DNA of 64,000 nucleotides, filler included, from Stramenopiles sp. TOSAG23-3 (GCA_900128585.1; 10 parts of 10 records of this genome joined end to end with filler, not necessarily neighbours in it); one strand, 5' to 3'; counted from the whole stretch's first letter, positions 1,874-64,000 are shown. Numbers and translations: made by a program. Notes: a model not told the origin generated them from the letters alone.

Positions 1874-1918
1874 GTACATTAATTTTAATTACTTAAATAA
1901 CAGCCAATTTTCTTGTTT
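1874..1918 (-). repeat. Dispersed conserved gene-3'-end element, full copy
   Basis: Reverse complement AAACAAGAAAATTGGCTGTTATTTAAGTAATTAAAATTAATGTAC, 3 nt after the PDE stop codon. Confidence 0.85.
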
Positions 1919-1921
1919 AAA

Positions 1922-4900
1922 TCAATTTTGCAGGCCCTTGAAAAAGTAAGAATTTCCTCGCCTACCCTGGACACGTCTGCGCTGAGAAATTGCACCAGTC
2001 TCTTTTTTTCTATCAAAGGATTGTAAAATTATTTCTGGGTCTGCACCTTTTGCTAGCTTTACCCAATGCCGACGATTTTGTTCTATGTTAGCGTAGATAA
2101 GCCTTACTTTAGGGAGCACGCCAGCGATTGCTTCAAACCACGGTTGGACGATAAAATCGTAAAAAGAAATTTGCAACTTCGCTTTCTTCACATTTTCCGT
2201 AACTCCCTGCAGGTACCCCGTCACGGGCAAGCCAGCCTCTTGCTCCGCAATAGTTTGTGCATGAAATTCCTCGCAAACCATTCCAGCCCATTTGTAGACT
2301 ACTTTAAAGTCAAATATCACTGGGTTGGAAAGGTCTGCGGAATGCATGATAATGCCATACAGCAGATTTCTGCTCCTTTCGTCGTCTACGTCAAACGCAG
2401 GCTCCATTGCACCCTCGAGTGCTCTTCCCGGCTCTCTCTGTTGTGCAAGCTTCCGTGCCAATATACGCACTTTTTGCGTCTTCCCCGCGTGGTCCGCCAT
2501 GTCAGTAGCAAGAATACTTTTTATCAACACTTTTCTAAAATGGCGCATAAGGTTCTTGTCGCTGGAAACCAAAAACTTGCAATCTTCCCCGGCAAAGATC
2601 CTTGAGGTTGTTGCGGCGTGGTGGTTTTCCAGGATCGATACATCGTTGTATGTCAGCGCTAGAGGGCTCATGGTTGCCGAGTGAAACGCGTTGGTTGTTC
2701 CGGTATGGTCAATGTCATGGCCGAGTCCTGCGGCAACCAGCGCCAAGCGCTCTATTGGCAGCAGAAACTCTTTTGCAGAGGTGTCCGTAACGTACATGTG
2801 CGAGATGTGTGCCACAGACACTGCATGCTTTGCATTGTGATATGGAATGTCCCTGTACCCATTGAGCACTGTCTTTACAAAACACCCCAGCTTTTCCCTA
2901 TCAACTTCAAAGTTTTCCGTGTCAAGTGGTATCACATTGTCAAACATGGCTTTGCAGTACGGAGACAATTCATCGGAAGCATACCTTAATGGGTCGAACG
3001 CCCAGCTCTGCACCTTTTTTCTAACAAAAGAAAAACCTTTTTTTGCATTAAAGGCTGGTAGAAGCCTTTGGAGCTTTTGTTTTGGGGTATAATTCTTTCC
3101 CGCGTTTACGCTTGAACCGGTGGGGTTGTACTCTGCCAAAAAGTCGCGAAGGCTTGCCCCCTTCAGGATGTTGGAGTAACGCCGGTTGTTGGAGGTCCGC
3201 TTGCGCCGCTTAGGCTTCGCGTCGTTCGCAGATACGGACTGCCCCAGCAGCTGCGTATCATCTGCCCCCGTTTCTTCGTCTCCTGGATTGGAATCTCCTT
3301 GGATTGCCAAGTGGATCAAAATCTCGTGATTTCGTTCTTGAAAAATGTTGCAAATTTCAGCTACAAAAAACTCTAATGCTTCCACATCATTTGGAGAAAA
3401 ATCTTCCGGGCTGCAATCGTCTCCTGAGCTCCTCTTGTTTCCAAAAGACATCAATGCAACAGTCCTGCCGTCAAGATCTTCGATAGGAATGACGATTAAG
3501 TTGTACGTCTCTATTTCGACAAGTCCTTGCAAGGCGTTAGCGCTGTACGGGAGTGATTTCCCTAAGCTCCATTCCACTCGATCATTGCTGCTGTAAGCGT
3601 AAGATATGGCGTCCGTATTGCTGCCTCCTGAACTTTTCATAAATTGCATATCAAAAGAGACGTGTGCTTTCTGTCCCCTTTTGCGACACACAGAGAAGAA
3701 CGAAGACGTCTCCTTCTGATGAATATGTATGCATGTATAGTCGTGCTCGCAAATATACCTCGCGGATTCTAGCATTTTGTCTAGCAAGTACTCCATATTT
3801 GACGTCGTTGAATTGGCGCGAACAACTTCGATTAGCGCTCTGTTGCGAACGTTGACCATCTTGTTCAACGCACGCCGCCGCTCGCGATTGTTTAGTATTT
3901 GCACAGAAGGTGCAGAAAGAATCTTAAAGTTCGTCTTGTGCTGACTCATCTTCAAGTCAAATTCATCTTGGTCCATTTTCTGCTCCCCAATCTTCATGAG
4001 CAACGAGCTCACTTTATCGTCCTGGCTTTTTTTCAAAAGTTTTCTTCTAAACGATTTAAGACTCTTCCGCTCTAGACTACCAGCCTTCGTTTTGGCTGTT
4101 TCCGACGTCTTCGCGTCTGAGATCTTTACCTTCTCCTGAAAGGAGCTTGCCCAGCTTTTGCTTGGCTGGCCCTGCTCGGGATCAACAGCGCTTAGATTTG
4201 AGTAAAATGTACTTACAACTTTGCCGTCTTCGTACTCAATTTCACACTCTTCGCTATTGTCATTGCAGTCGAAAACTCTCCCGACGCAACCAGCATAATT
4301 TCGGTCCTGGCCGCTTAAATGAATTATAGAAACGTATATGTCTTCAATAATTATTTTTGGTCGCAGATTACTGTGCTTGAGCGCAGCTGGTTTTTGTTTC
4401 GCAGACATCGTGACCAAATATCGCTGCAATTTTTTATCGTACGAAAGGACTTCTCCAGCGACTCCATTGTATTTGGTATTGCTCAGAGAGTGTGTGATAA
4501 CTTCTGTTCCAGCTGGCATCAGCAAGACGGCTTGGCTAAATGAATCCTCGGGCGTCGTTTCAGTTGCATCAGCTACCTGCAATTGCTCTTCTTGAGCTTT
4601 CCCTTCTATTGAATTTCCTCGTTCGTCTCTCTCATCTGGTCCAGTCCTGATCGCGCAGCCAGTTTCGAACATGACTTGATTGATCTCATTTTCCGCTTCC
4701 AAAAGTTCGCGGTCGATCTGATCTATCAGTCTTTCGTTTCTTCTCTTCGCTTTGGCCTTAATTTGCTTTACATGATACCGACTCATACTAAATCGATCTA
4801 TGCGTATAAATAGACTACGTCCTGCCTCAAAGGTTTTCCCTCTTTGGGGTGGCTGTGAAATGCACTTGGGAGTTCTTTTACTTTCTCTCCAATTCTGAAA

Positions 4901-4948
4901 AGATACCAAAATCGAATTCCACGTCCGTATAAAAAGAAAGCGGGCCAT
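1922..4948 (-). CDS. Class I cyclic nucleotide phosphodiesterase with GAF-like domain (start may be Met at 4786)
   Basis: YHNAKHA, HDIDHTG, LENHH, ILATDM, HSADLSN and EEFHAQ PDE motifs; upstream GAF-like region ending GNK...FSPNDVEAL. Confidence 0.92.
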   Translation of the reverse strand: MARFLFIRTWNSILVSFQNWRESKRTPKCISQPPQRGKTFEAGRSLFIRIDRFSMSRYHVKQIKAKAKRRNERLIDQIDRELLEAENEINQVMFETGCAIRTGPDERDERGNSIEGKAQEEQLQVADATETTPEDSFSQAVLLMPAGTEVITHSLSNTKYNGVAGEVLSYDKKLQRYLVTMSAKQKPAALKHSNLRPKIIIEDIYVSIIHLSGQDRNYAGCVGRVFDCNDNSEECEIEYEDGKVVSTFYSNLSAVDPEQGQPSKSWASSFQEKVKISDAKTSETAKTKAGSLERKSLKSFRRKLLKKSQDDKVSSLLMKIGEQKMDQDEFDLKMSQHKTNFKILSAPSVQILNNRERRRALNKMVNVRNRALIEVVRANSTTSNMEYLLDKMLESARYICEHDYTCIHIHQKETSSFFSVCRKRGQKAHVSFDMQFMKSSGGSNTDAISYAYSSNDRVEWSLGKSLPYSANALQGLVEIETYNLIVIPIEDLDGRTVALMSFGNKRSSGDDCSPEDFSPNDVEALEFFVAEICNIFQERNHEILIHLAIQGDSNPGDEETGADDTQLLGQSVSANDAKPKRRKRTSNNRRYSNILKGASLRDFLAEYNPTGSSVNAGKNYTPKQKLQRLLPAFNAKKGFSFVRKKVQSWAFDPLRYASDELSPYCKAMFDNVIPLDTENFEVDREKLGCFVKTVLNGYRDIPYHNAKHAVSVAHISHMYVTDTSAKEFLLPIERLALVAAGLGHDIDHTGTTNAFHSATMSPLALTYNDVSILENHHAATTSRIFAGEDCKFLVSSDKNLMRHFRKVLIKSILATDMADHAGKTQKVRILARKLAQQREPGRALEGAMEPAFDVDDERSRNLLYGIIMHSADLSNPVIFDFKVVYKWAGMVCEEFHAQTIAEQEAGLPVTGYLQGVTENVKKAKLQISFYDFIVQPWFEAIAGVLPKVRLIYANIEQNRRHWVKLAKGADPEIILQSFDRKKETGAISQRRRVQGRRGNSYFFKGLQN

Positions 4949-5130
4949 GAATAAATACCTTTTTGTGTGATAATATATAATNNNNNNNNNNNNNNNNNNN
5001 NNNNNNNNNNNNNNNNNNNNNNNNNNNNNNNNNNNNNNNNNNNNNNNNNNNNTATTATACTCTTACAGGACAGCACGTACAAATATAATAACGTAACCGA
5101 TAAATATGAGAGAGGAGAAAGAGTGAGTAA

Positions 5131-9291: not shown

Positions 9292-9619
9292 TGGAGAGTC
9301 GAGGCTCGTTCCTTTCGAAAATTTTTAAGTTTTTCTAAAATGCTTTATTGGGTACACGAAATATTTACTTTAACTTATGCTATTGCTTTTTGATGAATTA
9401 AGATTGTGCATTTTATAAATTTTAATCCAGGAATTAAATGACATCCTTTATTTTTTTGTTTTTATAAAGAATCCTAGGAAGAGCCAATTTTTTGTTTTTA
9501 AAAATCCTAAGAGTTCTTTTTTTTTTCATTACTTGGTTTACGTTACATATACGGAACAGTGTTAGAGTCAGCGTATTTCAGGAAATGGAAAAGAGATCAA
9601 ATCTAAAACGCACGCGGTA

Positions 9620-11059: not shown

Positions 11060-11135
11060 CTTCTTCTTCTTCTTCTTCTTCTTCTTCTTCTTCTTCTTCT
11101 TCTTCTTCTTCTTCTTCTTCTTCTTCTTCTTCTTC
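11060..11135. repeat. (CTT)n microsatellite; (CCTT)n follows at ~11426-11470
   Basis: Direct reading. Confidence 0.95.
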
Positions 11136-17018: not shown

Positions 17019-18668
17019 ATGGAGACAGGAACTGCCGAATGTGGTAGTCTAGAATCGGGGGCTGTGCGTACTCCGGGGGAACCCTCGGTTACTCCGGTGC
17101 GAGCCTCTTCCGATGCTGGTGTAATAGAGGACAAACTGTTCACGGTCATAGATAAACTGGTACATACGTTAGAACCATACCCGGAGACTCCCCCAACAGA
17201 AAATGTGACCGGCACGAGGGCGAGTGATATTGAATTCACCCCGCCCCCCGTCCCGCCAGTGCAGTCCCCGTTTCAAAAGCTGCATTCGGCCAGCCTGGGG
17301 TTTCTGGAAAAAAGGGACAACGACGGGGCAGAAACGGTGCTTGATGTCCTCCTAATGAACGCCGGTGCTTCAGACCTTCCTAAGGAGACACCAGAATCCC
17401 AGAAATTGCCAGAAACGGAAAAGGTGTCTTTACAACCTTCAATTCAAATTGACGGGGCCAACACCGTCGTCCCCGAGGCGAAGAGGCCTCCACTCTTTCC
17501 CCTCAAGACCCTTCCTCAGGTTTCACAATGGACGACGAAAAGGGGGGGCGGGTTGCACCTTTTAGATGCCAGCTTGAGGGGGATCGGACAGGTATTTTTC
17601 TGTAATTCTCCAGTGTCTGGGATCGGACAGGTATTTTTCTGTAATTCTCCAGTGTCTGGGGGCATGTTTCTCTTAGCTGTCTTAGTGAGTGACCCTAAGA
17701 TGGCGGCGCTTCTCGTTCTTGCCGTTGCTTCCGCTACTGCTTTCGCCAAAGCAATGGGCTTTGACTCCGGCCTACTTGCCGCCGGGATTTGGGGCTACAA
17801 CAGTGCTCTTTTGGGTTGCGCGTTAAGTGTTTTCAGTTGGGGCAACAATTATCCTCCAGAGGCGGAACTGCTGTCAACCGTTTTCTTGTTGGGACTTGGT
17901 GTAATTGGGGGGGCGTGCATGACGGTGATTGTCACCGGTGCCGTGGCGCGACTTCTAGTGCCACAGGGCATCACCCCACTAACGTTCCCGTTCCAGCTAG
18001 TGGCTTGGATGTGGCTTCTTGGAGCGCAGCAGTGGGGTCACGTGACGGCCCGATTCTCGCCGCGTCCGTCGCTTCAAATAAATATGAACACAACCGCTGC
18101 TGTAAATGGGACGGCTGCTGTAGAATATAGCGTGCCGACGCCATTCCAAGTCCAAGTTTACGACCCTGCACGCATCTTGTTGGCAGCTTTCAGTGGGATT
18201 GCGCAAACTTTCCTTGTTCCACAATGGTATTGCGGCCTCATTATGCTACTTGGCATCGGCTTGTGCTCTATGATTTCTGCCGTTTGGGCACTTGTCGGAT
18301 CGTTGGTAGGTTGCATCGTTGCGATGGGACTGGGAGTGAGCCCCGATGACATATACTTGGGGCTCCACGGGTACAACTCCTGCCTTGTCGGCATGGCGCT
18401 TGGTGGATTTTTTCTGGTGCAGCGCGGCTGCAAGATAAACGTAGTTGCGGTTATGGGTATAATTGCAGCGGAAGTGATGACAACAGCCACAAGCTCTGCG
18501 TTCTCCCCCGTGGGTTTGCCAGCTTTGACATGGCCCTTTACGGTTATTACATGGTTAATTATTCTTGCAACGGCAGGCCTCCCCGATATTGTCCCAGTGG
18601 CCATAAGCTCTCTCACCACGGCAGAGGACCATCGAAAAATTAAAAACAAAAAACTGGCTACTATTTAA
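17019..18668 (+). CDS. Urea transporter (UT/SLC14 family)
   Basis: LRGIGQVFFCNSPVSG, GIWGYNSAL, LTFPF, GIAQTF, GLHGYNSCL and LTWPF repeated UT motifs. Confidence 0.92.
   Translation: METGTAECGSLESGAVRTPGEPSVTPVRASSDAGVIEDKLFTVIDKLVHTLEPYPETPPTENVTGTRASDIEFTPPPVPPVQSPFQKLHSASLGFLEKRDNDGAETVLDVLLMNAGASDLPKETPESQKLPETEKVSLQPSIQIDGANTVVPEAKRPPLFPLKTLPQVSQWTTKRGGGLHLLDASLRGIGQVFFCNSPVSGIGQVFFCNSPVSGGMFLLAVLVSDPKMAALLVLAVASATAFAKAMGFDSGLLAAGIWGYNSALLGCALSVFSWGNNYPPEAELLSTVFLLGLGVIGGACMTVIVTGAVARLLVPQGITPLTFPFQLVAWMWLLGAQQWGHVTARFSPRPSLQINMNTTAAVNGTAAVEYSVPTPFQVQVYDPARILLAAFSGIAQTFLVPQWYCGLIMLLGIGLCSMISAVWALVGSLVGCIVAMGLGVSPDDIYLGLHGYNSCLVGMALGGFFLVQRGCKINVVAVMGIIAAEVMTTATSSAFSPVGLPALTWPFTVITWLIILATAGLPDIVPVAISSLTTAEDHRKIKNKKLATI
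17580..17657 (+). repeat. Exact 39-nt tandem duplication within the urea transporter CDS
   Basis: GGGATCGGACAGGTATTTTTCTGTAATTCTCCAGTGTCT x2. Confidence 0.95.
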
Positions 18669-18703
18669 AGTAACGTAATTAAAATTCAAATGTATTGCGA
18701 ACT
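18644..18703 (+). repeat. Dispersed 3'-end element, diverged copy overlapping the urea transporter stop
   Basis: AAACAAAAAACTGGCTACTATTTAAAGTAACGTAATTAAAATTCAAATGTATTGCGAACT aligns with the copy at 63884. Confidence 0.7.
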
Positions 18704-19139
18704 CATATAGGAAATGCGAATTAGTATACATATAGTACAAAACTGTTGAGGCATTTGGCGTGCCTCTTCGTCGCTCGTCGTCGTAGAAGAAAGAAAGAAG
18801 GTATATATAATAATGATGATGATGATTTTTTTATTTTTTTTTTTAAATAATAATAATAAAAAAATGCGAGAGATGTGATATGATGTGTGATGATACCTGG
18901 TATAATAATAAAAAAAATAATAAATATAAATAATAATAAATAATAAAAAATAATATATTTTTCCAATGTTAAAATTTCCAAATCACCACATGTTAGTATT
19001 AAGAATTAAAAGGTTTTCCAATTTATTGATTCATTACAAACGATAAGAAAAGTAAAATAAAACATACACTTGAGTTTTTCCTCTCTTTTGTTTGTTATTT
19101 TAATTGTTTTTGTTCCGATTTCTGTTCTTTCGAGGCACG

Positions 19140-20323: not shown

Positions 20324-20354
<31 letters not shown>

Positions 20355-25294: not shown

Positions 25295-25465
25295 TTAAAT
25301 ACGGCTAATTAGACTAAGGCAGCAAGCGAAAAGTTCTTAGAATGGATAACAAATTCTTAAACCCTTTTTTCGAAGTTCGTTCCACCACCGTTCGTTCAAT
25401 TTCAGTTGTACCTACCGTACTAAATAATAAGCAAGAAGAAGATGGTTTATAGAAAGAAGAAGATA

Positions 25466-25503
25466 TTAATTACCTATAAATAACAGCCAATTTTCTTGTT
25501 TTT
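25466..25503 (-). repeat. Dispersed 3'-end element copy
   Basis: + strand TTAATTACCTATAAATAACAGCCAATTTTCTTGTTTTT; ACTGCGAACTTAT box (reverse) at ~25634-25646. Confidence 0.85.
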
Positions 25504-26704
25504 AGTAGAAGATATTATAATTAAATTAGATTATTATTAAAAAGACCATCATCAATCTCTTCGTCGTTCAACACTATTTATTATCTATTATAGATATTAA
25601 TATATTAATAATAAAAAATGTTATTTAAGATAATAAGTTCGCAGTTTACAAAGGCCCGAGACGTGAAAAAACACGAAATAAGAACCTGCTACAGTGGTCC
25701 CGAGACTTTTTTCGGCCTAGAGGCATCTCGATTTTCCTCGAAATAATACAGGCACATAGCACGGGCTAATATAGGGGCTACGAGGGACCTTAAATATATA
25801 ACACTATGATGAAATCGTACTTATTCCATACTCTATCAATTCCTACAGCTAGCTCCGGAAGGGACAATGCTAAGCGCCTGTAAAAAGAACCAATACGCAA
25901 ACTAGTCTATACAACAACCTCCTCTCTTTCCTTTCTCGACAAGAAAAAACGATGTGCACTTCCACCTGAAACACCAACCCACAGCATCTGATGCTCTGCC
26001 TTCGGTATATAACTAGCAAGTATTAATTAATATAGAGAGAGGAGGAGAATAGAAAATAACTATATCTAGTATCATATGTTGTGTTTATATTTCCTGTATT
26101 AGTAAAGTTTCGTGCTATTTTTTTACTAACGCTTACTATTATAAAAACTTAAAACCTATTAATCCCAACAGCTATTGTGCCAGCAGCCCACAGCAGTAAT
26201 GCTCTGGCTATTATGAAGAGGCAAAAAAAAGATGAAAGTAGTAGCACGCTAGCACGTAGTGGTTAACGACCTGAACATTACATCACAATAGCAGCTTGAA
26301 GAAGAGAGAGAAGGAGAAAAAAAAATTATAAAAATAATAAATAAATACAATAATAATAAAAAAACGAAATAATTAATAATATAGTACCAAGGTAGTACAT
26401 ACAAGACGATAAATTAAGAATTGAAATAGAAGCCAGATGGACTTCTTCGCAGTCTTAACATGCAAGCAGTCAAAAATGAAAATTGTGTACCAATTTAGTA
26501 AAGAGATAGGATGAAATATGGAGGAATGGATGAAGCAAATTATTTGTTTTGATCTCTTAGTGTTGAAACGACGGTAAGAGAACAAAGAGCATAGAAGAAG
26601 GACTGTGCGTCCTTCTGGAACGGCGGACTTGAGGGCGCACGACTCCGACCGCTCTGCTTGCTCGCTGGACTTTCGCCTTTCCGACCAGCGGTTTTGTTAG
26701 TGGA

Positions 26705-43883: not shown

Positions 43884-44445
43884 GATTGTTTGTTTGTTCG
43901 TCGGTCTTAAAAAAACGGAGATGAAAGCTTTAAATTAGTATTCCTACCTGTATATATTCAACGTCTTTCAAATGTTAAAAATCTTTTGTTGCCTTCAAAC
44001 CCATTCCATCCCATCGTAATTTCTTTNNNNNNNNNNNNNNNNNNNNNNNNNNNNNNNNNNNNNNNNNNNNTTAATTAATTAANNNNNNNNNNNNNNNNNN
44101 NNNNNNNNNNNNNNNNNNNNNNNNNNAGAAGGGAACGTGTTTCGCACCACCACATGATAACTTTAAAATACCAGAAGTAACTATGATATTATGATATGAT
44201 GATATGATATACAATACGTATGGCAGTACGAGAAGAGAATAATTAATTTGTTTGGTGGAGTTTAAGACTAACATAAGTAACTGATTCGGATCATGCATGG
44301 AGCGTACGTCTGAGAATGATACAAGTACTGATAGTCAAGACTAAGTGACTAGGGTAGATTGATCAGTAAAACCACAAGAGCAGAGACAAGTGCGCAGTAC
44401 ATGAAGGAACGTAAACCTTTAATTGACAAATGAGCAGATTCATTT

Positions 44446-44515
44446 TCGCAGTTTAGTATTATACTATATATTTTGTTTTTTTTTAATTACTTAAATAACA
44501 GCCAATTTTCTTGTT
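44446..44515 (-). repeat. Dispersed 3'-end element copy with downstream ACTGCGAA box
   Basis: + strand TTAATTACTTAAATAACAGCCAATTTTCTTGTT at 44483-44515 and TTCGCAGT at ~44445. Confidence 0.85.
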
Positions 44516-44669
44516 ATGATATGATATAAAAATTTATCATACCTATTAAATACGCGCACGCGTACAGATCGTAAACAGGAAAACAAATATTTAAGTTTTA
44601 AAATTCAAAAAAAAGGCCGATTTATTTCTCTTCTTCATAACATGATTAAAGATTAAGCTTTCTTCGAAT

Positions 44670-46873: not shown

Positions 46874-47233
46874 ACCGCGCAGTAGGTACGCGCTCGCCTG
46901 GGTCGGCAATGGCAACGAAGGCCCATCAATGGTGTGGCAGCTCGCAGCAGAATGTAATTTTCCAGTGTGCTAATTAAGATTACACCAACTTTTAAAGAAG
47001 TACAAGCACAACTTTTAAAATTGTTTTATCCCATAAAAAATATACCGATCATTATTTGATTGAGCAGTATGATATCATACCACAGACAACGAGCCCCTTT
47101 AAAACATTTATGCCGCTGTGTACTTTTCAGACCAATCAATTGGAATCTTGACCAGAACTTGGGGAGGATCTGCAATATAGGAGGAGACATTGTTCTTGAA
47201 CTGACACCTTCTTTTTTCTTTGTATATATATAT

Positions 47234-47273
47234 TTTAATTACACTATAAATAACAGCCAATTTTCTTGTTTTT
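47234..47273 (-). repeat. Dispersed 3'-end element copy
   Basis: TTTAATTACACTATAAATAACAGCCAATTTTCTTGTTTTT, ~50 nt after the renalase stop. Confidence 0.85.
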
Positions 47274-47323
47274 AAAAAATATGTTTTTTTTTTCTATGAT
47301 ATCATATGGGATAAAAACTTGTC

Positions 47324-48484
47324 TCACAATGACGACGATGCAACATCAGAATGGTGTCGACTGGACAACCAGCGGTTGACCATCTCTGCCGCTTCCTTTC
47401 CGCTTCGCACACAGTTTTCAAAATTGCTTCCCGCAATAGAATCTCCTGCAACAATAAGTAAAGGACCATTTTCTTCGGTATCGACATTTAGTGCGGAAAA
47501 CGATTCTGCCTCGAACCCTGCGCCTACTTCAGTCCCCGGCCGGACCTGAGAGTACTTCCAATGAATAAGTTTCGTGCCTACGGGCATCACCCCGTCTTCT
47601 GTAAGCTTTGGCAAAAATTTCCCTATTTTTGGAAGAAGCTGGTTTAAAATTTCTTCTCTGGTATCTCCCGAGTGCTTCAGTGACCATGGGACCCCGCAGT
47701 GCGCCACGACGACCGGGCCAGGACCACCCTCGCTCCCTTCCAAAAAACCGCGTTTCTTGGATTCCAGAGAAAGCCATACAAGGGCGTCGTCTTCATCCTT
47801 CCTTACATACCTAGCTACCCACGGCGCCTGTTCGATCGCAGGCCACGCATTAAAGGGGTAATATATGCCAAGTGCCCACCTACTTGAAAACTGAACCCCA
47901 TTTAGTTTTTTTCCATGGAAATCATTGTTCAAAAAGTGCCGAACATTCCCACCAATACCCAAAGCTTGCGCAGCGGGTATTGACAGAACAACGGCGTCAA
48001 ATTGTTCAATATTTTTCTCCGTGTCCGTTACTTTCCACGCCGAGTGTGTTTTGTCGATAGAAGAGACGCGCCGGTTGTACTCTACGTGCGTGTCACCAAT
48101 GAAGTGTTTGACAAGTGAAGATATTCCCCTAGGGGCAGCATAGTGAAGTTTTGAATCGTGACCGTCGCGCGTATTTTCAATATTCCCAGTCAGTTCAATC
48201 AAAAGGTTCTGCCGAAGCAAATTGTCGTAGTGGAAAGGACTTTGAGCGTCCAAGGCGTTCCCACCACCAGCGTCTACTGTAATGTATTGCGCACCAAGAT
48301 CAACGTGCATTCTCGCATCAGTGCTAGACCGAGATGTTGACATACGACCTCCAGCACCCCTCGATTTGTCCCATACAGTTATCGACAGTTCAGAGGAAGA
48401 AAGTGTCGTTCGAAGTAAAGCGGCAGTCGTCGCGCCAGAGATCCCCGCCCCCACAATCAGCAGGCGGGGGGTTGCTGCAGCCAT
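47324..48484 (-). CDS. Renalase-like FAD-dependent oxidoreductase
   Basis: IVGAGISG, WDKSRGAGGRMSTSR, DLGAQYIT, HWKYSQ and AGDS...NFENCVRSG. Confidence 0.9.
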   Translation of the reverse strand: MAAATPRLLIVGAGISGATTAALLRTTLSSSELSITVWDKSRGAGGRMSTSRSSTDARMHVDLGAQYITVDAGGGNALDAQSPFHYDNLLRQNLLIELTGNIENTRDGHDSKLHYAAPRGISSLVKHFIGDTHVEYNRRVSSIDKTHSAWKVTDTEKNIEQFDAVVLSIPAAQALGIGGNVRHFLNNDFHGKKLNGVQFSSRWALGIYYPFNAWPAIEQAPWVARYVRKDEDDALVWLSLESKKRGFLEGSEGGPGPVVVAHCGVPWSLKHSGDTREEILNQLLPKIGKFLPKLTEDGVMPVGTKLIHWKYSQVRPGTEVGAGFEAESFSALNVDTEENGPLLIVAGDSIAGSNFENCVRSGKEAAEMVNRWLSSRHHSDVASSSL

Positions 48485-48952
48485 GAGAAAAAACGCAAAC
48501 AAGAACGATATTATTACAATCAGGTTCAAAGGCAACGAATTGGTGTGCATAACTTTTTGTGGTGAGGTGTAGCTGCTCGCTGAAATTTTGCCTCTTTGCT
48601 CGGAGCGCGAAGGACCGTGCGTACGATTCGATTTGGGGTATCGACCGATAAAATAGAAGAAGAACGGAATATTATTAATAAATATAGTAGTATTATAATA
48701 TATTTTTTTTAGATATTGATGATCGTCGATTTTGTGTGTTCCTGTTGTGTTGGTGTTGTTGTTGTTCTTTTTTTCTTCTTCTCATCATCCTCTTCTTCTT
48801 TCTTCTTTTCCATCATCCATTTCTTCTTTTTTTTTGCTTCTTCGAATTCGATTCTGGATAATATCATTTAAGTCTTTCTTATCACTATATAATAAATTCC
48901 AACAATATAGACTACTATATTATACAATATTTATAAAAACTATAATCCTTAA

Positions 48953-51900
48953 TCACCGTCTTCCTCCTGCAGTTTTAGAAAGGCGGCTTAGCTTGCTCTT
49001 CTTTCCACCTGCAGGGGTATTGTTTCGAGACAAAGCCGGCATGGACATGGGCGTATTCAAGCGGTTCTGGTTAGCATTGTTTGCTGGTGTCGAGGGAAAC
49101 GAACTAGCATCGAAGGTGTTTGGCGTTCCACTTCTAGAAAACGAATCCGAACCGTACGCGGTGGACGATGCGGCCGTCGAGCCCCGAGACTTGAGGCCGG
49201 GGAACCGAGACTTTGCTAAACCTGTGCTTCCGCGTGTATTCGACCTTTTCCCCTTTCCCCTGCTTTTGCCACCATGCCTTCGCATGCACACTTCTGTTTC
49301 GTGCAACTCCCTGTCCTTTTCTCGCATTTCAACCCCGCAGCCTAGAGAACAATTTACGATTCGCATGGGGCACGAATGCTTTTCGTGCGTTTTAGCCTTC
49401 CCTCTTATGACCAACGTGCCACATCCGAAGCTGCAGTACATTTGCGCCTTTTTACATTCCGTGTGGACATGCTTTGCAACCTCGTCTGCAAACATCTTTC
49501 TGGGGCACCGAGGACACTGCACTTCTCGTTTTGCGCAGTCGTTTGCTTTGTGGTTGGGAAGCTCGTTCAGTGGAAGCTGTAGTCCGCAGCCGTTCCCACA
49601 GTTGACGGGCCGGAAAGCACAATCATGCTCTTCGTGCTGAACTTTGTCGGATACAGTCATTTCCAAGCCACATCCTAGGGAACATGTATAAGACTTCTTC
49701 GTGCACTCTTGTTCTACGTGCTTTATGACGTTGCAGAATGACACTTCGTATCCACAAGCAAGCGGGCATGCAACGGGGCGGTAATCACAGTCGTGCTTTA
49801 TGTGATGGCTCATTTTTGACAACCTTAACCTCTCTCCACATTTATTTTTGCAGTCTACAACCCGTTGTATACAATTGACCCCTTCGTGTGTCGGGCGCTC
49901 TTGAAACTGCATCTTTTTCCCGCAATGCAGCCGGCACATTACCTCTCTAAACAAACAATGGTCTTCCGTGTGCTCTTTTAAATCCCTCCACATCATTTCT
50001 TTGCCACAACCAAGGTTGCAGCGAACTATGCGAAGATGGCATTCCATGAGGCAGTGTTTGTTTTGGTCCTTGTATTTGAGGGACAACCCGCACCCCAACT
50101 TGCACAACACCTGACGGTGCTTACAGTCGACATGCATGTGTCGCTCTAATTCTTGGAACTCCATTTTTTTTCCACAATGAAGCTTGCACTTAATTACTCG
50201 CCGACGGCAGTGCTTTTTCACATGCTTCACCATTTCATCCTCTGAAATCATCAATTTACATCGCAGAATGCAAGGGAGTAACCGCTTTTTACATTCGTGG
50301 CGCTGGTGCTGCTCTAAATCTTGCGCCCAAATATGCTCGGTTCCACACTTCTGCGGGCATTCTACTTCACGTTTCGGACACTCCTCAATTTCATGGGCAG
50401 GAATTTCTTCTTTGGGCAACTTTTTGCCACAGCCAAGTCCGCATGTGTACAAAATAATAGCCTTGCCTTTGTTCGCTCGGGCCAGGCCATAATTCCCAGA
50501 TCTTGCATTATAAATGTTTCTGGCAACCCCCGTAAAATTATTTGCAAGCGCCCAGTCAATAGCATTCTTACCAGACTTGTCCTCTTGGAATGGGTCTGCC
50601 CCCCGCTCAATAAGTAGCCGCACAGCGTCATTTTGGCCGTTCATGGCAGCATGCAACAGAGCCGTTTTACCATCTCTGGCAACCCGGTTGATTTCGGAGG
50701 CCCTGTCCAACAGCACCTCGATTGTTCGGACGCGACCATTTTTTGCTGCCCAGGAAAGCGCCGTATACCCTTGCTTGGTTTCATGGTCTATGTTTGGCCT
50801 TCGCTCTTCCCTGTCCAGCAAGAGCTCGACTGCCGGAGTCACAGTGCCGTCTTGGTTTACCGATGTTATTTCGCATGCTGCTGCCATTGTTAAGGGAGTG
50901 TGACCAAAACTATTTTCAAAGTCGCACGACGCACCTTCTCGAATAAGGCGGTCGACTTCGTTGAAGTTGCAGTCGTTTACAGCTCTGCCGCATTGCTCGT
51001 CCAGCTTCTTTAGGGTCTCGATTTCGTTTTTTGCGAGGAGCCAAGATTCCCGATGTTCAATCCATTCCTTTATTGCTTCGTCATTTCGGCGCTGGATTTT
51101 CTCCACGTATTCAAGCGTATATGTCCACCGGTTCCGAATGATCCATCCCCTTCCATCTTGCCAATGGTCGTGCCCGTGGTTCTTTTTACCAAGCTTTGCA
51201 CATTCATAAGCATTTAATGGCGTCTCCAGATGGTAAACGATTGGTCCATATTTTGGAATCTGGGCTTCCGTGGCCGTGCCACTATCCAAAACAAACGCTG
51301 GAAACAGGTGAGGCGGGGGGGCTGTGGGGTAAAGCCCAGTTTTTCTTGACAGGTTTGACCCTCTTCGAACCAGGCTTTGCACCGTTTCTAGGTGGCCGTT
51401 GTAAGCGGCCTCGGTCAGCGCCGACCGCACTTGAAGCCGCACCTTTCTTATCTGGGAGACGAAATTTCGCATCTGGAACATGTGTGCAATTTCCGCCATT
51501 TTAAACTTCAATGCAACCAATTTATGCCATTTGCCTCGATTACGCTTGTACTGGACAAAACGCCACTGTGCTTGTATAAGTTTTGCTGCCAACTGAATAT
51601 GGTCGTCTTCATAGGTTACACTTGCGCCGTGGTCTATCAAAATTTCAACCATATCCGTCTTGCCGTTCATAGCAGCCCATGTCAATGCGTTGTGGCCACC
51701 CTCGCTACGGTAAGCAAGCAGCTCTGCAACGCGAAGGTGCTTGTGGGTGCTGTTCAGGGTGGTTTCTGCCTCGCTAAGTTCTAGCCTATAGTCATCTAAA
51801 ACGTTGATAATAACGTTGCATTCAGAAAACACGCGGCGATAGGCTTCGCGGGCCTGCCACAAGTTCACGTCGAGGGTCTCATATTCTACGCGCAGCTTCG

Positions 51901-54900
51901 ATTCCTTTTCCTCCTTCGGTGCAAACTCGTGCTTCAAGCTATTGTAGGTTTCTACTGTACGAATCCACTTTGACATAAAACGCATAAAGTTATACCGTGG
52001 TTCATCGTACTCATCGTCCCCTGATTCCTTCGCCTCCTCGTCGTCTTCGTCGCTACTGTTTCCTTCGTACGTATACAAGAGCAAAGGGTTACTCGTGAAA
52101 TGCTCTTTCAAATGGTTTAGCTGTTCTTCCTCCAAATCTATCTTGATTTTTCCTTTATTCCAGTAAGAACGAAAGAAATTTGCCTGCTTCATAGTTTTTG
52201 TCCCGGTTCCCCACCAATCATCTTCCATAAGATTTGTCCGGGGATTTCTCTTTCTTTTGGGTTTTATCTCTAACATAAAACACGCAGCTTTCATAATGAG
52301 AGCAAATTGTTCTGTGGGATACTTGATATCACAGGATGCCCGAATCTCGTGGTTTTTCAGTCGTTGGACTTGAAACAGCACATCGTCTATTTCTCCTTCT
52401 ATGTAATCTTTCGTCTTCTGCACTTCTTCGTGTATGATATCTGCCTCTGCCTTCATTTTAGCTATTTTCTCCTCTGTATCTGTGATTACCTTTTTCCGTT
52501 TGTTAAGTTCTGGCTGTTTGGTTTCGAGGTCTTCTTCTAGGTCTCTGATTTCTTTCATCGCGTTTGCCCGCTTTATCCGTGCTTTTTCCACCCGTATCCT
52601 CATCTTTGGAATTGCATTAAACTCGTGCTCAATGCCCTCCTTCACCATTTTGTACATTTCATCAAATCGGTCCATCAAAATATGATTTAAAAGTTGTCGG
52701 TGCCGATTTTGCATATTGGAAATGTCGGCAAGCTGTTGGTACTCGTCACTTTCGACCCCAAATTTAATGCGTGCCCAGTCCATGGCGTTTCTCCTGAACT
52801 TGTTTCTGTAGTCAATAATCGCGCCTTGTTGCGCCAAAAACAGGGCTATCTTCGTCCGGCCTTCTTTAATTGCTTCTATTAGCGGGGTATATCCTCTGGA
52901 TGTTTCTCCGTCCATGTTTGCACCTCTGACAACAAGAAGCTTGGCGGCCTTCAGCTGACCTTGGTTGCAGGCATGTACGAGGGCAGTTTGGCCTACATCT
53001 GATTCGTGGTCAATATCAACACAGTTTGTTCTAACCAGCAAATAGTCCATCAAATCCAGTTCTCCGCGGCCAGCCGCCCATATTAAAGCTGTGCTTCTAT
53101 GAGCTTCGCAAAGCTGTAACCGGCCAAGCCCGTTTTCAGTATCTCCAACCAACCACATCTTTATTTGCCTGTCGCATTCTTTCATTCTCTGCCCGCATGA
53201 TATTCTGCGGTTTGGACACAAATTTAAATGGAATTTGACTTCTTCAGACACCAACGTATCTCCACATTCAAGTGGGCACGGCACACCTCTTCTAATGCAT
53301 TCTTCTTCTTCATGATTTCTTTTGTTTTTATGGAGAACACTTAAGCCGCACCCCAGGGCGCACATAGCGTACCGATTTTCACAATGATTGTGTTCATGGT
53401 CCTCCATTAAACTCCATTTAAACTTAGCAGGACAGCCTTGAGGGCATTTAACAACGCGCTCAGGGCAATGGTAGGTAATGTGGTCGTGCATTAGCGACTC
53501 TTTCATTTGGTCGCCGCATCCGATGGAGCAAGAAATTAATCTTTCGATGCATGTGTCCTCCACGTGTTCGTCTAACTCGCACGCTTTGCACATTGTACCG
53601 CACTGCAATGGGCATGGTAACAGCCTATATGGGCAATCGTTTTCGATATGGTTTGAGCATTCTTGGGACCACATTTTTTGAATATCACAACCCAACGGAC
53701 ACTTTACTATTCGTTTGTCGCACTCGTCGTTATAATGTTTTTCCATATGGGTTATCGGGACAGACACCCCACAACCCCGACGGCACGAAATCAATCGTGC
53801 GTCGCATTCGGACTTTATGTGCTCTTCCATTTCACAATACGGTATGTATTGCAAGCATTCGCAGAATACTTTTCGATAAACGCACTCGGTTTCCTCGTGT
53901 TGCTGTAAATCTTTGCTGGCCATTGTACGCCCGCACCCTTGGGTGCATGCTACTTTCAGCATGCGGCAGTTCTCGTTCTCATGTTTCACCAGAAATCGGC
54001 CTTCCATCAATTGGCCGCATCCATTCCGGCACTTCAGCAGTCTGTGGGGACAACACGTCTCGTTGTGTTCCCGCCTTTCGTTCTCCAGCATCATTTTGCA
54101 GTGCCAGGGCCCGTTGTCGATGATGTCAAAGCGTAAGTCACACAGTTTTGCCCAAAACCTTTCTGAGTGAGTGTTGATAAACCGATGGTGGCCGTCCTCG
54201 TTTCTAAAGTGTGTGGCACGAGCAACAAACGAATAAGAATCTTTTTCTGTAAAAAAGCCTCCGGGTTCATCTACAGTTGCCAGATCGAAGTGTGGACTCG
54301 TTTTGTAAATTCGAATTCTCTTGTTTATGTATTCGTACTGGCAGTGCAGGGGGCGCTTTGGGCACTCTGCATGCTCTGCTTTGTCGCCCCCTACGCCATG
54401 CAAATGAATGTGCAGCAGTTTTGCTTTCAGCATCTTTCCGCACCCATACGTACATGGAACCAGGCGTTCTTGGCACAAATTTGTCTCGTGGTCTTCCAGA
54501 TCTTGGGCCCTAATTCCCATAGTGTTGCAACCTAAATGACATTGGACAATGCGCAACCCACATACCCACATCTCATGAATTTTGCGCCGATCCTGGGGGG
54601 CGAGATTCACTCCACAGCCCCATCTACACGGTTGAAGACAGGTCAAATTCATATGATCTTCGAGCTCTTCAAATCGGCAAACCACACCACAATTGTAACC
54701 GCAAGGTACTAAACGTTTGGGGCATTCGGTTTGTAGATGATGCACCATTTGATTAACTCGTAAATCGTGACGCCCACAATTTAAATCACACGAAACTATC
54801 CTGAACGGGCATTCGTTTTCTTCGTGGAACGGCCGGGCGTCCCACGGAAACGTTTCTCCGCAGTCATCGTGCACCCTACATGTCACAATTCGCTTTTTGC

Positions 54901-55008
54901 AGAACTTTGTTGAGTGAAAAACTAATTTTTTATGCTCCATTTTTACCGTGCAACCAAAGTAGGAGTTTGTGCACATGACAATTCTGTTTTCGCAGTGTTT
55001 CTCTTCGT
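48953..55008 (-). CDS. Giant TRAF-type zinc-finger / ankyrin / IQ protein with dynein stalk-like insert; 5' truncated
   Basis: Numerous CxxxCG..H...CxxRxVxC units at both ends; ankyrin TAL/TPL repeats; IQAQWR; frame open to the contig end. Confidence 0.88.
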
Positions 55009-60003: not shown

Positions 60004-60107
60004 ATTAGCAGACGATTTTTCTTGGGAAGACTTTTTTACCGACATTTATTTCTCGTGGCTGACATGCTGTTGGCACAAAATAATGTTAAGTGATATCATA
60101 CTATTAT

Positions 60108-60182
60108 AAAAACAAGAAAATTGGCTGTTATTATTTAAGTAATTAAATTAGAAAATTGGCTGTTATTTAAGTAATTAAATTT
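60108..60182 (+). repeat. Dispersed 3'-end element, tandem double copy flanked by 13-bp direct repeats
   Basis: AACAAGAAAATTGGCTGTTATTATTTAAGTAATTAAATT then AGAAAATTGGCTGTTATTTAAGTAATTAAATT; ATATCATACTATT at 60093 and 60189. Confidence 0.85.
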
Positions 60183-60267
60183 AGCTTAATATCATACTAT
60201 TTCGTAAGTATTTGTTGTGTGATTGTGTGTAGTGTAGATCAGTATTTGTTTTAATCAAACTGGGCTT

Positions 60268-60793: not shown

Positions 60794-61515
60794 AAACATA
60801 GAAAATTGGGAAAAACACCTATATAATAATAGTGTCAAAGAAGAAGAAGAACATTTTTATTATTATGAGAAAAAAAAATAAAAAATAATAAATAGAACAA
60901 TAATAGAACAACAAAAACAACACAAAAAAAAACAGGCAAGTAGCATAGTATTAATACAATAAATATTATGAGATATTTATAATAATTTAAGAAGAAGAAG
61001 AAGAACGTGGGTATAATTGGTCCAATAATATATAATAATATAGGAAGGAGGTGGGTATATTTAGTAATTAAATATTTAATTCTTCTTCTTCTTTTTTTCT
61101 TCTCTCTCTTCTTCTTCTTCTTCTTTTCTAAAAAATAATTTAAATTATTATTATTATAAAAGTTATGTTATGTCTTCGAAGAACAAAATCGATCATCCTT
61201 CTTTTATATATTTTGTTATAATACCTTGGTATAATACCTCCTATTGATAAAAACAAGAAAATTGGTTTTTATTTATTTTATCTCTTGGTTGAATAGGTTC
61301 AAAATGAATACGAAAACATATAAAAAAAAAAAAAAATTATTATTATTACATAAAAAAAAAACAAATTATATATTTTAGTATGCTTTAACACTCCCATTTA
61401 ATTATAATGTGTGCCAATAAAAATCAGATTTATATGTACAGCCAATATATATTCTTAGTATCATAGACTAACTTACTGTTTTTACTAATTCTTTAAAGAT
61501 TACACTCTCTTATTT

Positions 61516-62516: not shown

Positions 62517-62518
<2 letters not shown>

Positions 62519-62561
<43 letters not shown>
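62519..62561. repeat. (AG)n microsatellite
   Basis: Direct reading. Confidence 0.95.
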
Positions 62562-62565
<4 letters not shown>

Positions 62566-63055: not shown

Positions 63056-63607
63056 ATGTTAGTCGATAGTGAAACCACGTCCAAGTTGTGGATATCATTT
63101 TATTATTCATGTTTGTACTGTTTTTTCCGTGTCTTCATCACCGCGAGCGTCGACGCCCTCGTATTATTTCAATCACTTACTGATCCGTGGTCAGAGATCC
63201 TTTACTATGAGCTAAATATAGATTGGAAGTTTTGCTTAGCGGAATTTTACTACGTTGCTGTGACAGAACCTTGGGCATTGTGTATATTTGTGGCGATCTT
63301 TACCCTGGCCATATGGAGTTCTGCCCTTGTGACTTGTCTGGACGAGTGCGGGTGTGGGGCACTTGGGGATTTTTTTGAGAGTTTTTTCAGTCTTTTGTCA
63401 AGTTCTTCAGGCGACAACGAAGATGATTTTGCGGACCTTCCGGACATTTTTGGAGAAGATGATGAGGAAGCCCAGGCCACGAAAAAAGTCAATTGTTCTT
63501 TTACCAAGCGAGGGAGGGAAGAAACGGTCGACGACTACGACCGTCTTGTATACCATCCTACGTATGGGGTTATCCCCATAGGTGTGTTTAAGCGTTGGGA
63601 TTTGTAA
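63056..63607 (+). CDS. Hypothetical membrane protein with acidic C-terminal tail
   Basis: Two hydrophobic segments, acidic region, C-terminal YDRLVYHPTYGVIP. Confidence 0.5.
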   Translation: MLVDSETTSKLWISFYYSCLYCFFRVFITASVDALVLFQSLTDPWSEILYYELNIDWKFCLAEFYYVAVTEPWALCIFVAIFTLAIWSSALVTCLDECGCGALGDFFESFFSLLSSSSGDNEDDFADLPDIFGEDDEEAQATKKVNCSFTKRGREETVDDYDRLVYHPTYGVIPIGVFKRWDL

Positions 63608-63883
63608 AGAATGATTCCCCAATGTGCTGCTCCAATTCTTGTACAAAAAAATTAAGATCTTAAAAGAACGTTTGTTCACTCCAACGAAGAGAGTGTTGCG
63701 TTGTTGGGCCGGGTTGGAGCTTTAGCTCGAGTGTAAATTAAAAAGGCAGCAGTAACGCCGATATTTTGAATAAAAAATATTTTTTATAAGAAAATGAAAA
63801 TAAAACTAATTATTTGGTATATGAAGAAGATAAAAATTAAAAAAAAACAAAAAACTGGGTGTTGTTGTTGTTTAAAAGTAAAA

Positions 63884-63938
63884 AAACAAGAAATTTGGCA
63901 GTTATTTAAGTAATTAAAATTTTAATGTACTGCGAACT
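63884..63938 (+). repeat. Dispersed 3'-end element, longest copy
   Basis: AAACAAGAAATTTGGCAGTTATTTAAGTAATTAAAATTTTAATGTACTGCGAACT; second ACTGCGAACTTAT at ~63981. Confidence 0.85.
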
Positions 63939-64000
63939 GAAATCTAGATTTAGACATTCTAGGTTTACATTCCTTCATGAACTGCGAACTTATCTTTGCT

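Follow-up and report, generated by a model that had tools for sequence, protein, structure and literature searches.

A conserved motif of approximately 35 bases, repeated close to gene ends in a 64,000-nucleotide stretch of protist DNA (hereafter the window), is very likely the constant 3' terminus of a retroposon family that spreads by target-primed reverse transcription; on the opposite strand this terminus reads ...TTTAATTACTTAAATAACAGCCAATTTTCTTG followed by a T-run. The signature of this process is a constant end combined with truncation at variable points and with target-site duplications that differ in length. The original prediction had offered three readings of the motif, namely a 3'-processing or termination signal, a protein-binding roadblock and a very small non-autonomous mobile element located at gene ends. 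The last of these is borne out by the variable duplications, the truncation from a constant end and the presence of nested copies, and the other two are not.

The motif is a dispersed repeat of a marine protist

N44-TTAATTAATTAA-N44 linkers connect the 10 contig pieces that make up the window, and seven of the 10 carry copies of the motif, matching the predicted spread over seven contigs. Six near-identical and three diverged copies are present (Table 1), and small internal insertions occur in the copies at 25466-25503(-), 47234-47273(-) and 60108-60142(+). When up to three mismatches are allowed, near or exact matches to a 34-mer are found at four locations (1884-1917(-), 44482-44515(-), 60146-60179(+) and 63885-63918(+)) versus none in 100 shuffled sequences. 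These matches, along with those in 120 further contigs, establish that the predicted repeat is real. A profile search of the window returned eight copies, including the diverged copy at 61247 (E = 0.009). The diverged copies at 18644(+) and ~9480(-) were called by eye and are absent from the nhmmer output at E ≤ 10; the latter is backed by a 10-nt flanking repeat with one mismatch.

An exact 19-mer from the motif retrieved the 120 further marine contigs (loci), which comprise ~0.86 Mb. Because these loci were ascertained through an exact match, copy density among them is inflated. Two of the 120 (L016 and L017, with GC contents of 0.62 and 0.50) have no tail past the core and resemble bacterial chance matches, and these were kept in the counts. 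Profile hits at E ≤ 0.01 number 217 motif copies (heads). The host of this family is an uncultured marine protist.

One constant end and a continuum of truncated bodies

Among 147 oriented instances, conservation begins abruptly at (T)TAAAAACAAG, with none upstream, and downstream it fades and divides into subfamilies. The constant boundary is A3-5 CAAG... On the opposite strand the motif reads as a 3' tail, ...CAGCCAATTTTCTTGTTTTT, belonging to 5'-truncated retroposons that end in ...CTTG plus about 3-5 T residues (0-6 as judged by counts of the A-run gap). Element lengths measured from this end form a continuum from 18 to ~332 nt, and the 5' ends of long copies are all different. Subfamily A follows 58 of the 217 heads and subfamily B follows 47, with the remaining 112 running into other sequence, a class that includes subfamily C and solo stubs. 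The tail and an A or B body occur together in duplication-flanked copies of 149, 171, 296, 304, 324 and 335 nt.

Subfamilies A, B and C and a sister family, D, differ upstream of the tail, where 3'UTR-like sequence is followed by coding-like sequence; only the terminal ...TTGTTTTT is common to D and the other three. The A and B bodies finish in an ORF C-terminus, as read from alignments and from ORF 1400-1825(-). Given the 3'UTR-like and then coding-like order of these sequences, the source elements are therefore longer protein-coding units and not classical SINEs. The RNA-derived 5' part, Pol III promoter and defined 5' end of a SINE are not seen, as 5' ends vary and bodies are coding-like. 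Rfam yielded no SINE-type (tRNA, 5S or 7SL) match in the window at the gathering threshold or in seven long-copy loci at E ≤ 1, and a tRNA search found none. Alignments of copies reveal poly(A) on neither side of the element, and the poly(A) or short tandem repeat that usually forms the 3' tail of target-primed retroposons is absent.

The second box reported to accompany several copies, ACTGCGAAC, has three exact matches in the window compared with 0.45 expected. Because one of 100 shuffled sequences also gives three, the box is not significant alone. It is contained in a 31-mer common to 44388-44418(-) and 63961-63991(+), and it is an internal, next part of subfamily A that is real only within this longer repeat. 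The GGCTCTTATTTA sequences at 1484-1495 and 1519-1530, originally taken for motif cores, proved instead to be the two copies of a 12-nt target-site duplication, between which lies a sister-family insertion of 22 nt.

Table 1. Motif copies and related fragments in the window, with neighbouring genes.
Feature	Position	Strand	Description	Context
Sister-family (D) mini-insertion	1484..1530	+	Insert 1496-1518; exact 12-nt direct repeat GGCTCTTATTTA on both sides	
Internal-body fragment, 92 nt	1781..1872	+	90-94% identity to coding-like interior of longer copies; matches L022 1979-2070, L112 and L062	Inverted relative to c1 tail; possibly the 5'-inverted portion of the c1 insertion, or else a separate fragment
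c1	1874..1921	-	Tail motif and first ~11 nt of subfamily-A continuation; no clear target-site duplication	Begins 1-4 nt past TGA (1922-1924) of phosphodiesterase gene; convergent spacer
c9	9467..9509	-	23-nt tail stub 9477-9499; 10-nt repeats TAGGATTTTT / TAGGATTCTT, 1 mismatch	~430 nt downstream of HAD-hydrolase stop; convergent spacer
c7	18644..18720	+	Diverged tail and diverged subfamily-A start; by eye only	Last ~8 codons and TAA stop (18666-18668) of urea-transporter ORF fall within copy
c2	25455..25517	-	35-nt stub 25469-25503; 14-nt repeats TAATATCTTCTACT / TAATATCTTCTTCT, 11 exact	Antisense to DCD-domain gene ending at 25294
Lone ACTGCGAAC box	25637..25645	-	...CTTAT after box; matches the second of the internal subfamily-A boxes	Probably an independent small fragment
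c3	44199..44531	-	301-nt subfamily-A copy 44215-44515; 16-nt repeats, 13 exact: TATATCATATCAT; short D-type piece nested directly behind tail	~155 nt past CBS-gene stop
c4	47034..47282	-	229-nt subfamily-C copy 47044-47272; exact 10-nt repeats ATATTTTTTA	~50 nt beyond amine-oxidase stop (47324); convergent spacer shared with + gene ending 46873
c5	60093..60201	+	83-nt insertion 60106-60188 (two tail motifs and 9 nt of subfamily B); exact 13-nt repeats ATATCATACTATT	~105 nt beyond histidine-phosphatase stop
c8	61247..61280	+	Diverged stub, match over first ~20 nt	Antisense to HMG-box gene ending at 61516; D-type copy ~100 nt beyond (about 61355-61420)
c6	63882..64000	+	Tail and subfamily-A body that includes both ACTGCGAAC boxes (at 63929 and 63981); exits window end	~278 nt after an ORF stop

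Target-site duplications and a proposed insertion mechanism

An exact repeat of at least 10 nt directly next to the A-run, with a second occurrence 18-800 nt downstream, is present at 58 of 194 copies, compared with 6 of 194 in a control with the flank shifted by 60 nt. At a threshold of at least 11 nt, the corresponding numbers are 46 and 5. Duplication lengths vary from 10 to 17 nt, and exact duplications of at least 10 nt are absent in 136 of the 194 copies. In the window, duplications flank c2, c3, c4, c5, c9 and the D insertion at 1496-1518. The duplication ends in A at 41 of the 58 copies and in T at the other 17, never in G or C, and it is followed by T at 33 of the 58. Comparison of six overlapping locus pairs yielded no clean empty site, the sole indel being a 2.6-kb rearrangement. 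Copies also cluster and nest, with 50 neighbour pairs of the 217 heads no more than 150 nt apart and, at locus L026, an older inverted stub into which a 296-nt copy, flanked by a 15-nt duplication, has inserted.

We propose that insertion would begin with a nick in AT-rich DNA, and that the nicked strand, whose 3' end terminates in A, would pair there with the U-rich end of a putative element RNA. A reverse transcriptase would then copy this RNA, starting at the 3' end, and in most cases drop off early, an event that would leave the majority of copies with no more than the final 18-60 nt and a few with ~300-335 nt. A staggered second nick would produce the target-site duplication of ~10-17 nt.

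A candidate for the enzyme was sought with Pfam among 25 of the 375 locus ORFs of at least 250 aa, 30 window ORFs and seven element-linked ORFs, and no reverse transcriptase or endonuclease was found in this subset. A crude regular-expression search based on reverse transcriptase motifs gave two hits, neither of which is a reverse transcriptase. These negative results, the missing clean empty site, the 3' end in oligo-T with no predicted stem-loop and the 136 copies with no exact duplication of at least 10 nt count against the retroposon reading. The D-type body at L022 encodes the C-terminus of a multi-copy protein family, composed of P0121 and 26 relatives (E ≤ 0.001, 58-81% local identity), for which there is a weak Ulp1 hint (PDB 1euv, E = 0.94) that is below significance.

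Copies are concentrated at the 3' ends of genes

Distances to stop and start codons were compared by using bare ORFs (at least 120 aa, GC at least 0.42) as gene models. In 131 of 141 spacers, the gene end closest to the copy is a 3' end, with a median distance of 117 nt from the stop codon, and copy-bearing spacers are convergent in 72 cases, tandem in 22 and divergent in 2. These results uphold the initial observation that copies lie near stop codons, often between convergent genes. Spacer GC is equal for the convergent (0.342) and divergent (0.343) classes. Copies gather ~70-210 nt from stop codons; promoter-side spacers have very few, and none was found within an ORF. It is unusual for copies to be so restricted to gene 3' ends. 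Targeting may account for this distribution, although selection could also give rise to it.

In compact genomes, position-specific retrotransposons, such as those that target tRNA genes, gather at 'safe' intergenic positions. The family described here likewise occupies a restricted set of 'safe' positions within a gene-dense genome, but these lie on the 3' side of protein-coding genes and any active targeting would be putative.

Contigs from four RNA-library runs, representing four studies and including one oligo-dT library, pile up on the motif to a summed depth of 26-260, compared with ~0-13 on most gene bins; being contigs, they attest to presence in RNA libraries and not to transcript ends, strand or an RNA intermediate. 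They leave the window sequence at 44481/44482 and at 44509-44519 (most at 44515). Because they diverge at both edges of the motif, the motif must be common to many loci.

The original prediction preferred a lineage-specific cis-acting 3'-end signal, acting in polyadenylation or termination or as a roadblock, that is kept at gene ends by selection. The strong 3'-end location agrees with this explanation, as does the presence of the motif in the oligo-dT RNA-library contigs. In addition, ATTAAA, a common poly(A) signal variant, can be read on the sense strand inside GTAATTAAA. In the window, seven of the nine copies share the orientation of the upstream gene, as had been noticed, the antisense exceptions being c2 and c8. 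However, this tendency does not extend to the larger sample, wherein 75 copies are sense and 56 antisense to the nearest gene (n = 131, p = 0.12, not significant) and tandem spacers hold 11 sense and 21 antisense copies. Many copies are just 18-30 nt long and lack the ATTAAA part, and at the other extreme ~330 nt, part of it coding-like, is copied together with the motif. Since the motif is flanked by duplications and copied along with a body, it arrives by insertion. Contigs for the CBS-domain gene, from two runs, end at 44568-44586, short of the motif at 44515, which is a weak hint in the same direction. We therefore regard a 3'-end signal as an unlikely origin for the motif, which may nevertheless have a secondary, exapted role at 3' ends.

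Other classes of mobile element and artefacts

A MITE-like DNA transposon, whose terminal inverted repeat of ~35-50 nt would be the motif and whose decayed ends would be the solo copies, is somewhat less probable still. There are eight pairs of facing copies, 272-568 nt apart, and L026 and L044 resemble inverted-repeat elements. However, only these eight pairs exist among 217 copies, and the L026 arrangement resolves as the nested insertion described above. Furthermore, the duplications have no fixed length, one end is constant while the other is truncated along a continuum, and no transposase was seen in the 25 locus ORFs and 30 window ORFs scanned.

We give even less weight to a rolling-circle (Helitron- or Helentron-like) element with one fixed terminus, a variable opposite end and a captured OTU-like protease gene. 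The fixed terminus and variable extent of the copies, along with frequent insertion between A and T, are compatible with such an element. OTU domains occur in Helentrons, and P0125, a relative within the D-linked protein family, has a weak OTU-like match (E = 0.013, 16.5 bits) that is under the Pfam cut-off. Against this, Helitrons are not known to make target-site duplications, yet 58 of 194 copies carry them. Structure prediction for the 77-85 nt at the terminus gives no 3' stem-loop or stable hairpin (z-scores of -0.47 to +0.75), and no Rep/helicase was seen in the 25 locus, 30 window and seven element-linked ORFs scanned.

Although several copies are close to contig ends, as would be expected of assemblers at repeats, and poly-G runs terminate some contigs, an adaptor, primer or amplification chimera joined to contig ends is refuted by duplication-bearing copies that lie inside contigs of several independent assemblies with unique flanks, under several accession series and in the four RNA-library runs.

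Comparison with known retroposons

The preferred reading, a retroposon terminus, has a close parallel in LINE and SINE families that share a specific 3' tail, a condition termed 'stringent' 3'-end recognition (PMC3747384). As in the families outlined there (PMC3747384), the A, B and C bodies share an identical terminus of ~35-40 nt, copies are 5' truncated with variable duplications, and the tail would be the part recognised for copying. The present family differs in ending with ...CTTG and T3-5 instead of poly(A) or a short tandem repeat, in having no predicted conserved 3' stem-loop and no partner LINE with reverse transcriptase and endonuclease among the ORFs scanned, and in its bodies, which are coding-like and not derived from tRNA, 5S or 7SL RNA. 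Most of its copies are also extremely short, at 18-60 nt.

The non-LTR retrotransposons NeSL and Utopia-1_TSP are described as carrying a Ulp1-like cysteine protease domain (PMC4640811), and the Ulp1 and OTU hints in the D-linked family, both below significance, would be a similar feature. However, the protease of those elements is N-terminal to a reverse transcriptase, which is not seen here among the ORFs scanned, and they target specific genes (SL, U2) and not gene 3' ends (PMC4640811).

By description, EhLINE and EhSINE of Entamoeba are comparable in including non-autonomous protist retroposons within a compact, AT-rich intergenic landscape (PMC2996970, PMC3118788). Leishmania SIDER1 and SIDER2 elements are likewise similar by description, as many short retroposon remnants behind the coding regions of a protist. 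According to PMC2323293, LmSIDERs are located almost exclusively in 3'UTRs and LmSIDER2 affects mRNA stability. SIDERs are described there as extinct (PMC2323293), whereas copies of the present family are near-identical, which we read as suggestive of recent insertion. The likeness is one of location, and any regulatory effect of the present family would be putative. Both orientations occur here, and the genes are not polycistronic but alternate between strands.

Copies of the conserved motif within the window

The window was assembled from ten contig pieces (five of ~11 kb and five of ~1.7 kb) whose joints have the form N44-TTAATTAATTAA-N44. Its genes are long ORFs without introns that alternate between strands and encode ordinary eukaryotic proteins, among them an S1/P1 nuclease, a cyclic-nucleotide phosphodiesterase, a HECT ligase, a urea transporter, an MFS protein, a TRAF-ankyrin protein, EF-hand proteins, Myb and HMG-box proteins, and others. 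The spacers are AT-rich. The window sequence occurs in sequencing runs of marine metagenomes and metatranscriptomes, which come from nine studies.

A 34-mer representing the motif yields four matches in the window with no more than 3 mismatches, versus none in 100 shuffles. A profile search recovers eight copies, among them a doubled one and variants with short insertions in their interior, and two further, diverged copies at 18644 and ~9480 were recognised by eye only. The original prediction of a conserved element near gene 3' ends describes these copies correctly. They are present on seven of the ten pieces, each resides 1-430 nt behind an ORF stop, seven of nine are in the sense orientation relative to the ORF ahead of them, and three are located in convergent spacers. 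Individual copies and neighbouring pieces are listed in the table.

Motif copies and neighbouring probable retroposon pieces in the window
Feature	Position	Element length	Flanking repeat	Remark
c1	1874-1921			begins 1-4 nt past the TGA (1922-1924) of a 1008-aa phosphodiesterase ORF
c2		35 nt (stub)	14 nt, 1 mismatch	
c3		301 nt	13 exact of 16	
c4		229 nt	10 exact	subfamily C
c5		83 nt	13 exact	
c7	18644-18668			diverged retroposon tail; contains the final ~8 codons and TAA of urea-transporter ORF 17019-18668
c9		23 nt	10 nt, 1 mismatch	
D stub	1496-1518			
Coding fragment	1781-1872	92 nt		piece of a D-type coding part, inverted beside c1

A constant end, truncation and subfamilies

When copies were oriented and stacked, a sharp onset of conservation was observed at (T)TAAAAACAAG, and nothing is conserved upstream of this point. 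Downstream of the constant end, copies vary both in their extent and in the sequence that follows GTAATTAAA, and BLAST cover declines steadily with distance. The continuation called subfamily A is carried by 58 of 217 copies and that called subfamily B by 47, and the other 112 include subfamily C and many solo stubs. A 'second box' reported to accompany several copies, ACTGCGAAC, is a real sequence but not a separate one: both ACTGCGAAC boxes are internal to subfamily A, and the second box is therefore simply the next part of A. Under target-primed reverse transcription (see below), the constant end must be the 3' terminus. The element is therefore read from the strand complementary to that on which the motif was originally described, with ...CAGCCAATTTTCTTG and a short T run at its end. 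Fold predictions for the terminal 77-85 nt reveal no stable structure (z-scores -0.47 to +0.75), and Rfam searches returned nothing relevant.

A sister family, D, has only the terminal ...TTGTTTTT in common with the main family and exhibits the same behaviour, with 60 matches to a 13-mer (at most 1 mismatch) and several clear duplications. This family explains the 'GGCTCTTATTTA cores' noted at 1484 and 1519, which are present but are not motif cores; they are the two exact 12-nt repeats that flank a D insertion of 22 nt. The convergent spacer in which they reside (1378-1921, 544 nt) consists almost wholly of retroposon pieces, namely the D stub, the coding fragment and c1. In addition, B and D bodies (the sequence beyond the tail) in several outside contigs (L007, L020, L022, L031 and others) carry a telomere-repeat-like stretch, CCCTAATCCTAAC, of about two units only, ~15-65 nt from the constant end.

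Target-site duplications

Direct repeats flank many of the solo stubs. Repeats were scored if they abut the A-run before CAAG and recur 18-800 nt downstream, and the same flank shifted by 60 nt served as the control. Exact repeats of at least 10 nt were found for 58 of 194 copies versus 6 of 194 in the control, and those of at least 11 nt for 46 copies versus 5. The flanking repeats are 10-17 nt long, and the lengths of the enclosed elements form a continuous range of 18-332 nt, with most below 60. Copies of 149-335 nt with flanking duplications carry the tail and an A or B body inside, and therefore tail and body were copied as one unit. Together, the constant end, the continuum of truncations and the variable-length duplications are characteristic of target-primed reverse transcription, and this combination is the established defining signature of non-LTR-type retroposition.

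The final duplicated base (n=58) is A in 41 cases and T in 17, and the base that follows is T in 33 of the 58. Copies also cluster, with 50 neighbour pairs no more than 150 nt apart among the 217, which is consistent with new copies landing in the A/T-rich stretches of older ones. Eight facing pairs, spaced 272-568 nt, resemble terminal inverted repeats. A candidate inverted-repeat element in L026 resolves to a 296-nt copy with its own 15-nt duplication that resides within an older inverted stub. The only 6 locus pairs that overlap yielded no clean empty site. One pair of contigs, otherwise 97-99% identical, differs by a 2.6-kb stretch (L075, 1519-4159) that is absent from L099. One breakpoint is within a B-type copy, so either a rearrangement or differing assembly at the repeat accounts for this.

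Copies beyond the window

An exact 19-mer from the motif core matched at least 120 contigs (864 kb) in a metagenome collection. A profile built from 143 instances identified at least 217 matches at E<=0.01 in these listed loci and the window. Two of the contigs, L016 and L017, have high GC content and a motif limited to the core; both resemble chance matches from bacteria and were kept in the counts. The 19-mer has one match in viral contigs, to the core only, and seven in 596 Gb of prokaryote genomes, of which six are core-only. The seventh lies at 3665-3683(-) of L123, a contig of 4.1 kb assigned to a Dehalococcoidia (bacterial) MAG. It has the full tail and a B body, and the contig is therefore probably eukaryotic and placed in the wrong bin. 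A text search of the literature with a 12-mer of the core returned unrelated matches only (mouse, zebrafish).

Bodies and linked proteins

Repeats extend to at least ~1 kb in L022. Based on alignments and an ORF at 1400-1825(-), we read the A and B bodies as closing with the C-terminus of an ORF, behind which comes a 3'UTR of ~100-185 nt with the tail at its end. In L022, shared alignment boundaries and sequence suggest that a second, D-type unit adjoins the B copy. This unit encodes the C-terminus of a protein family that includes P0121 (448 aa) and P0127 (459 aa). P0121 has 26 relatives at E<=0.001, with 58-81% local identity and very uneven lengths, and all of these proteins, P0121 and P0127 included, are unnamed or 'hypothetical' and carry no precomputed Pfam domains. 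A weak OTU match in a further member, P0125, is below the cut-off (E 0.013). The sole match in a PDB profile search for this protein family is Ulp1 (1euv), which is non-significant (E 0.94), and a PDB sequence search with P0127 gave 0 matches. Some non-LTR elements are described as containing Ulp1-like proteases (PMC4640811). The predicted structure of P0127, made with a 16-sequence alignment, has a mean pLDDT of 44.8 and a pTM of 0.25, values too poor for a fold search.

Searches for longer homologues of an ORF in L026 found none, and neither a reverse transcriptase (RT) nor an endonuclease was detected among the ORFs scanned. All-against-all BLASTP of 375 long ORFs yielded multi-copy families from the host only (kinase, kinesin, EF-hand, ankyrin, LRR, WD40, carrier and helicase).

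Targeting or selection at gene 3' ends

Positions relative to genes were evaluated for 212 non-redundant copies of the 217, using crude gene calls (ORFs of at least 120 aa with GC of at least 0.42). No copy resides within an ORF by these calls. Copies are present in 72 convergent, 22 tandem and 2 divergent spacers. Convergent and divergent spacers are about equally frequent along any contig, and therefore the contrast of 72 versus 2 (binomial p 3e-19) is a real one. With one copy counted per spacer, a 3' end is the nearest gene end in 131 of 141 spacers, and the median distance from copy to stop is 117 nt (IQR 68-209). Thus, the location originally proposed from the window holds in the wider sample. 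There, no significant preference for sense orientation to that gene is seen, with 75 copies sense and 56 antisense (p=0.12). Tandem spacers have 11 sense and 21 antisense copies, the majority in either orientation being closer to the stop of the upstream gene. Because GC content is equal in convergent (0.342) and divergent (0.343) spacers and the densities of A/T-runs are similar, composition does not account for the 3'-end bias.

This distribution raises the question of whether a retroposon chooses gene 3' ends or selection removes every promoter-side insertion. Of these two origins, the small size of most insertions (only 20-60 nt) leads us to regard targeting as possible but less likely than not. 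A fuller proposal, which we likewise offer tentatively and consider somewhat improbable as a whole, is that insertion of the family is actively directed to the 3' ends of protein-coding genes. Nicks that end in A, introduced in or close to terminator or poly(A)-site DNA, would serve as priming sites for the U-rich end of its RNA, and in a protist genome dense with genes this would amount to a 'safe haven' strategy. Proteins encoded by the source element would be of an unfamiliar kind, with weak OTU- and Ulp1-like hints, and a canonical LINE ORF2 would be missing from its 3' side.

If targeting occurs, stubs would be raw material for the evolution of 3'UTRs and terminators. Some stubs carry ATTAAA, and one supplies the stop codon of the urea-transporter ORF, where the insertion of c7 may have replaced the original C-terminus and stop. 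Gene 3' ends would then also be a target class new to the position-specific retroelements known from compact genomes. The top 15 results of a narrow full-text literature search, which is no proof of absence, included no case of a retroposon aimed at gene 3' ends.

RNA-library contigs and other readings of the motif

RNA-library contigs from four runs in four studies (one oligo-dT) were aligned to window positions 44127-55008; gene contigs ending before the motif and stretches without cover were left out of the evidence. Summed depth is 26-260 in the bins with c3 and c4 versus ~0-13 on most gene bins, and a second block of high depth at 47137-47177 corresponds to the C body. Agreement between the RNA contigs and the window breaks off at 44481/44482 in one direction and at 44509-44519 (mostly 44515) in the other. 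These data show that many motif-bearing loci are present in RNA libraries, and the contigs are silent on transcript ends, strand and level.

The high depth, together with GTAATT after the core, suggested a spliced-leader RNA gene or small-RNA promoter. This reading was ruled out, as the RNA contigs retain GTAATTAAA and part only beyond it, at 44481/44482, the listed loose ends at 44509-44519 have a median length of ~255 nt, and there is no Rfam match. A role as the promoter of downstream genes was likewise ruled out, given that only 2 of the 96 spacers with a copy are divergent. An ARS-like replication origin consensus, suggested by the convergent-spacer location, was dropped after the duplications and truncations were found.

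Relation to known retroposons

The retroposon family works like LINE and SINE families with a specific shared 3' tail, a concept already described for such elements (PMC3747384). In its final location it resembles the Leishmania SIDERs, which are described as residing almost exclusively in 3'UTRs (PMC2323293). It differs in its oligo-T terminus, its extreme truncation and its coding-like bodies without recognisable RT. Restriction to 3' ends is the one feature of the family worth following. Much of what looks 'conserved' in the 3' spacers of this uncultured marine protist is accounted for by stubs, as are contig breaks and very high RNA-contig depth at their sites, and the stubs should be masked before regulatory motifs or poly(A) signals are inferred from conservation.

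Other features of the window

A very large ORF of more than 2100 aa (26705-33028, open at the piece end) contains internal repeats of ~1.1 kb, and its domain matches are Chlamydia-PMP repeats, a beta-helix and an IPT/TIG domain. An 84-nt (28-aa) tandem repeat at 33190-34077 corresponds to the leucine-rich repeats of ORF 33214-34191. The regions 20319-20354, 21979-22006 and 11060-11135 contain long runs of poly-G, one of which closes a contig, plus (CTT)n at a contig start; these may be artefacts of sequencing or assembly, or else simple repeats.
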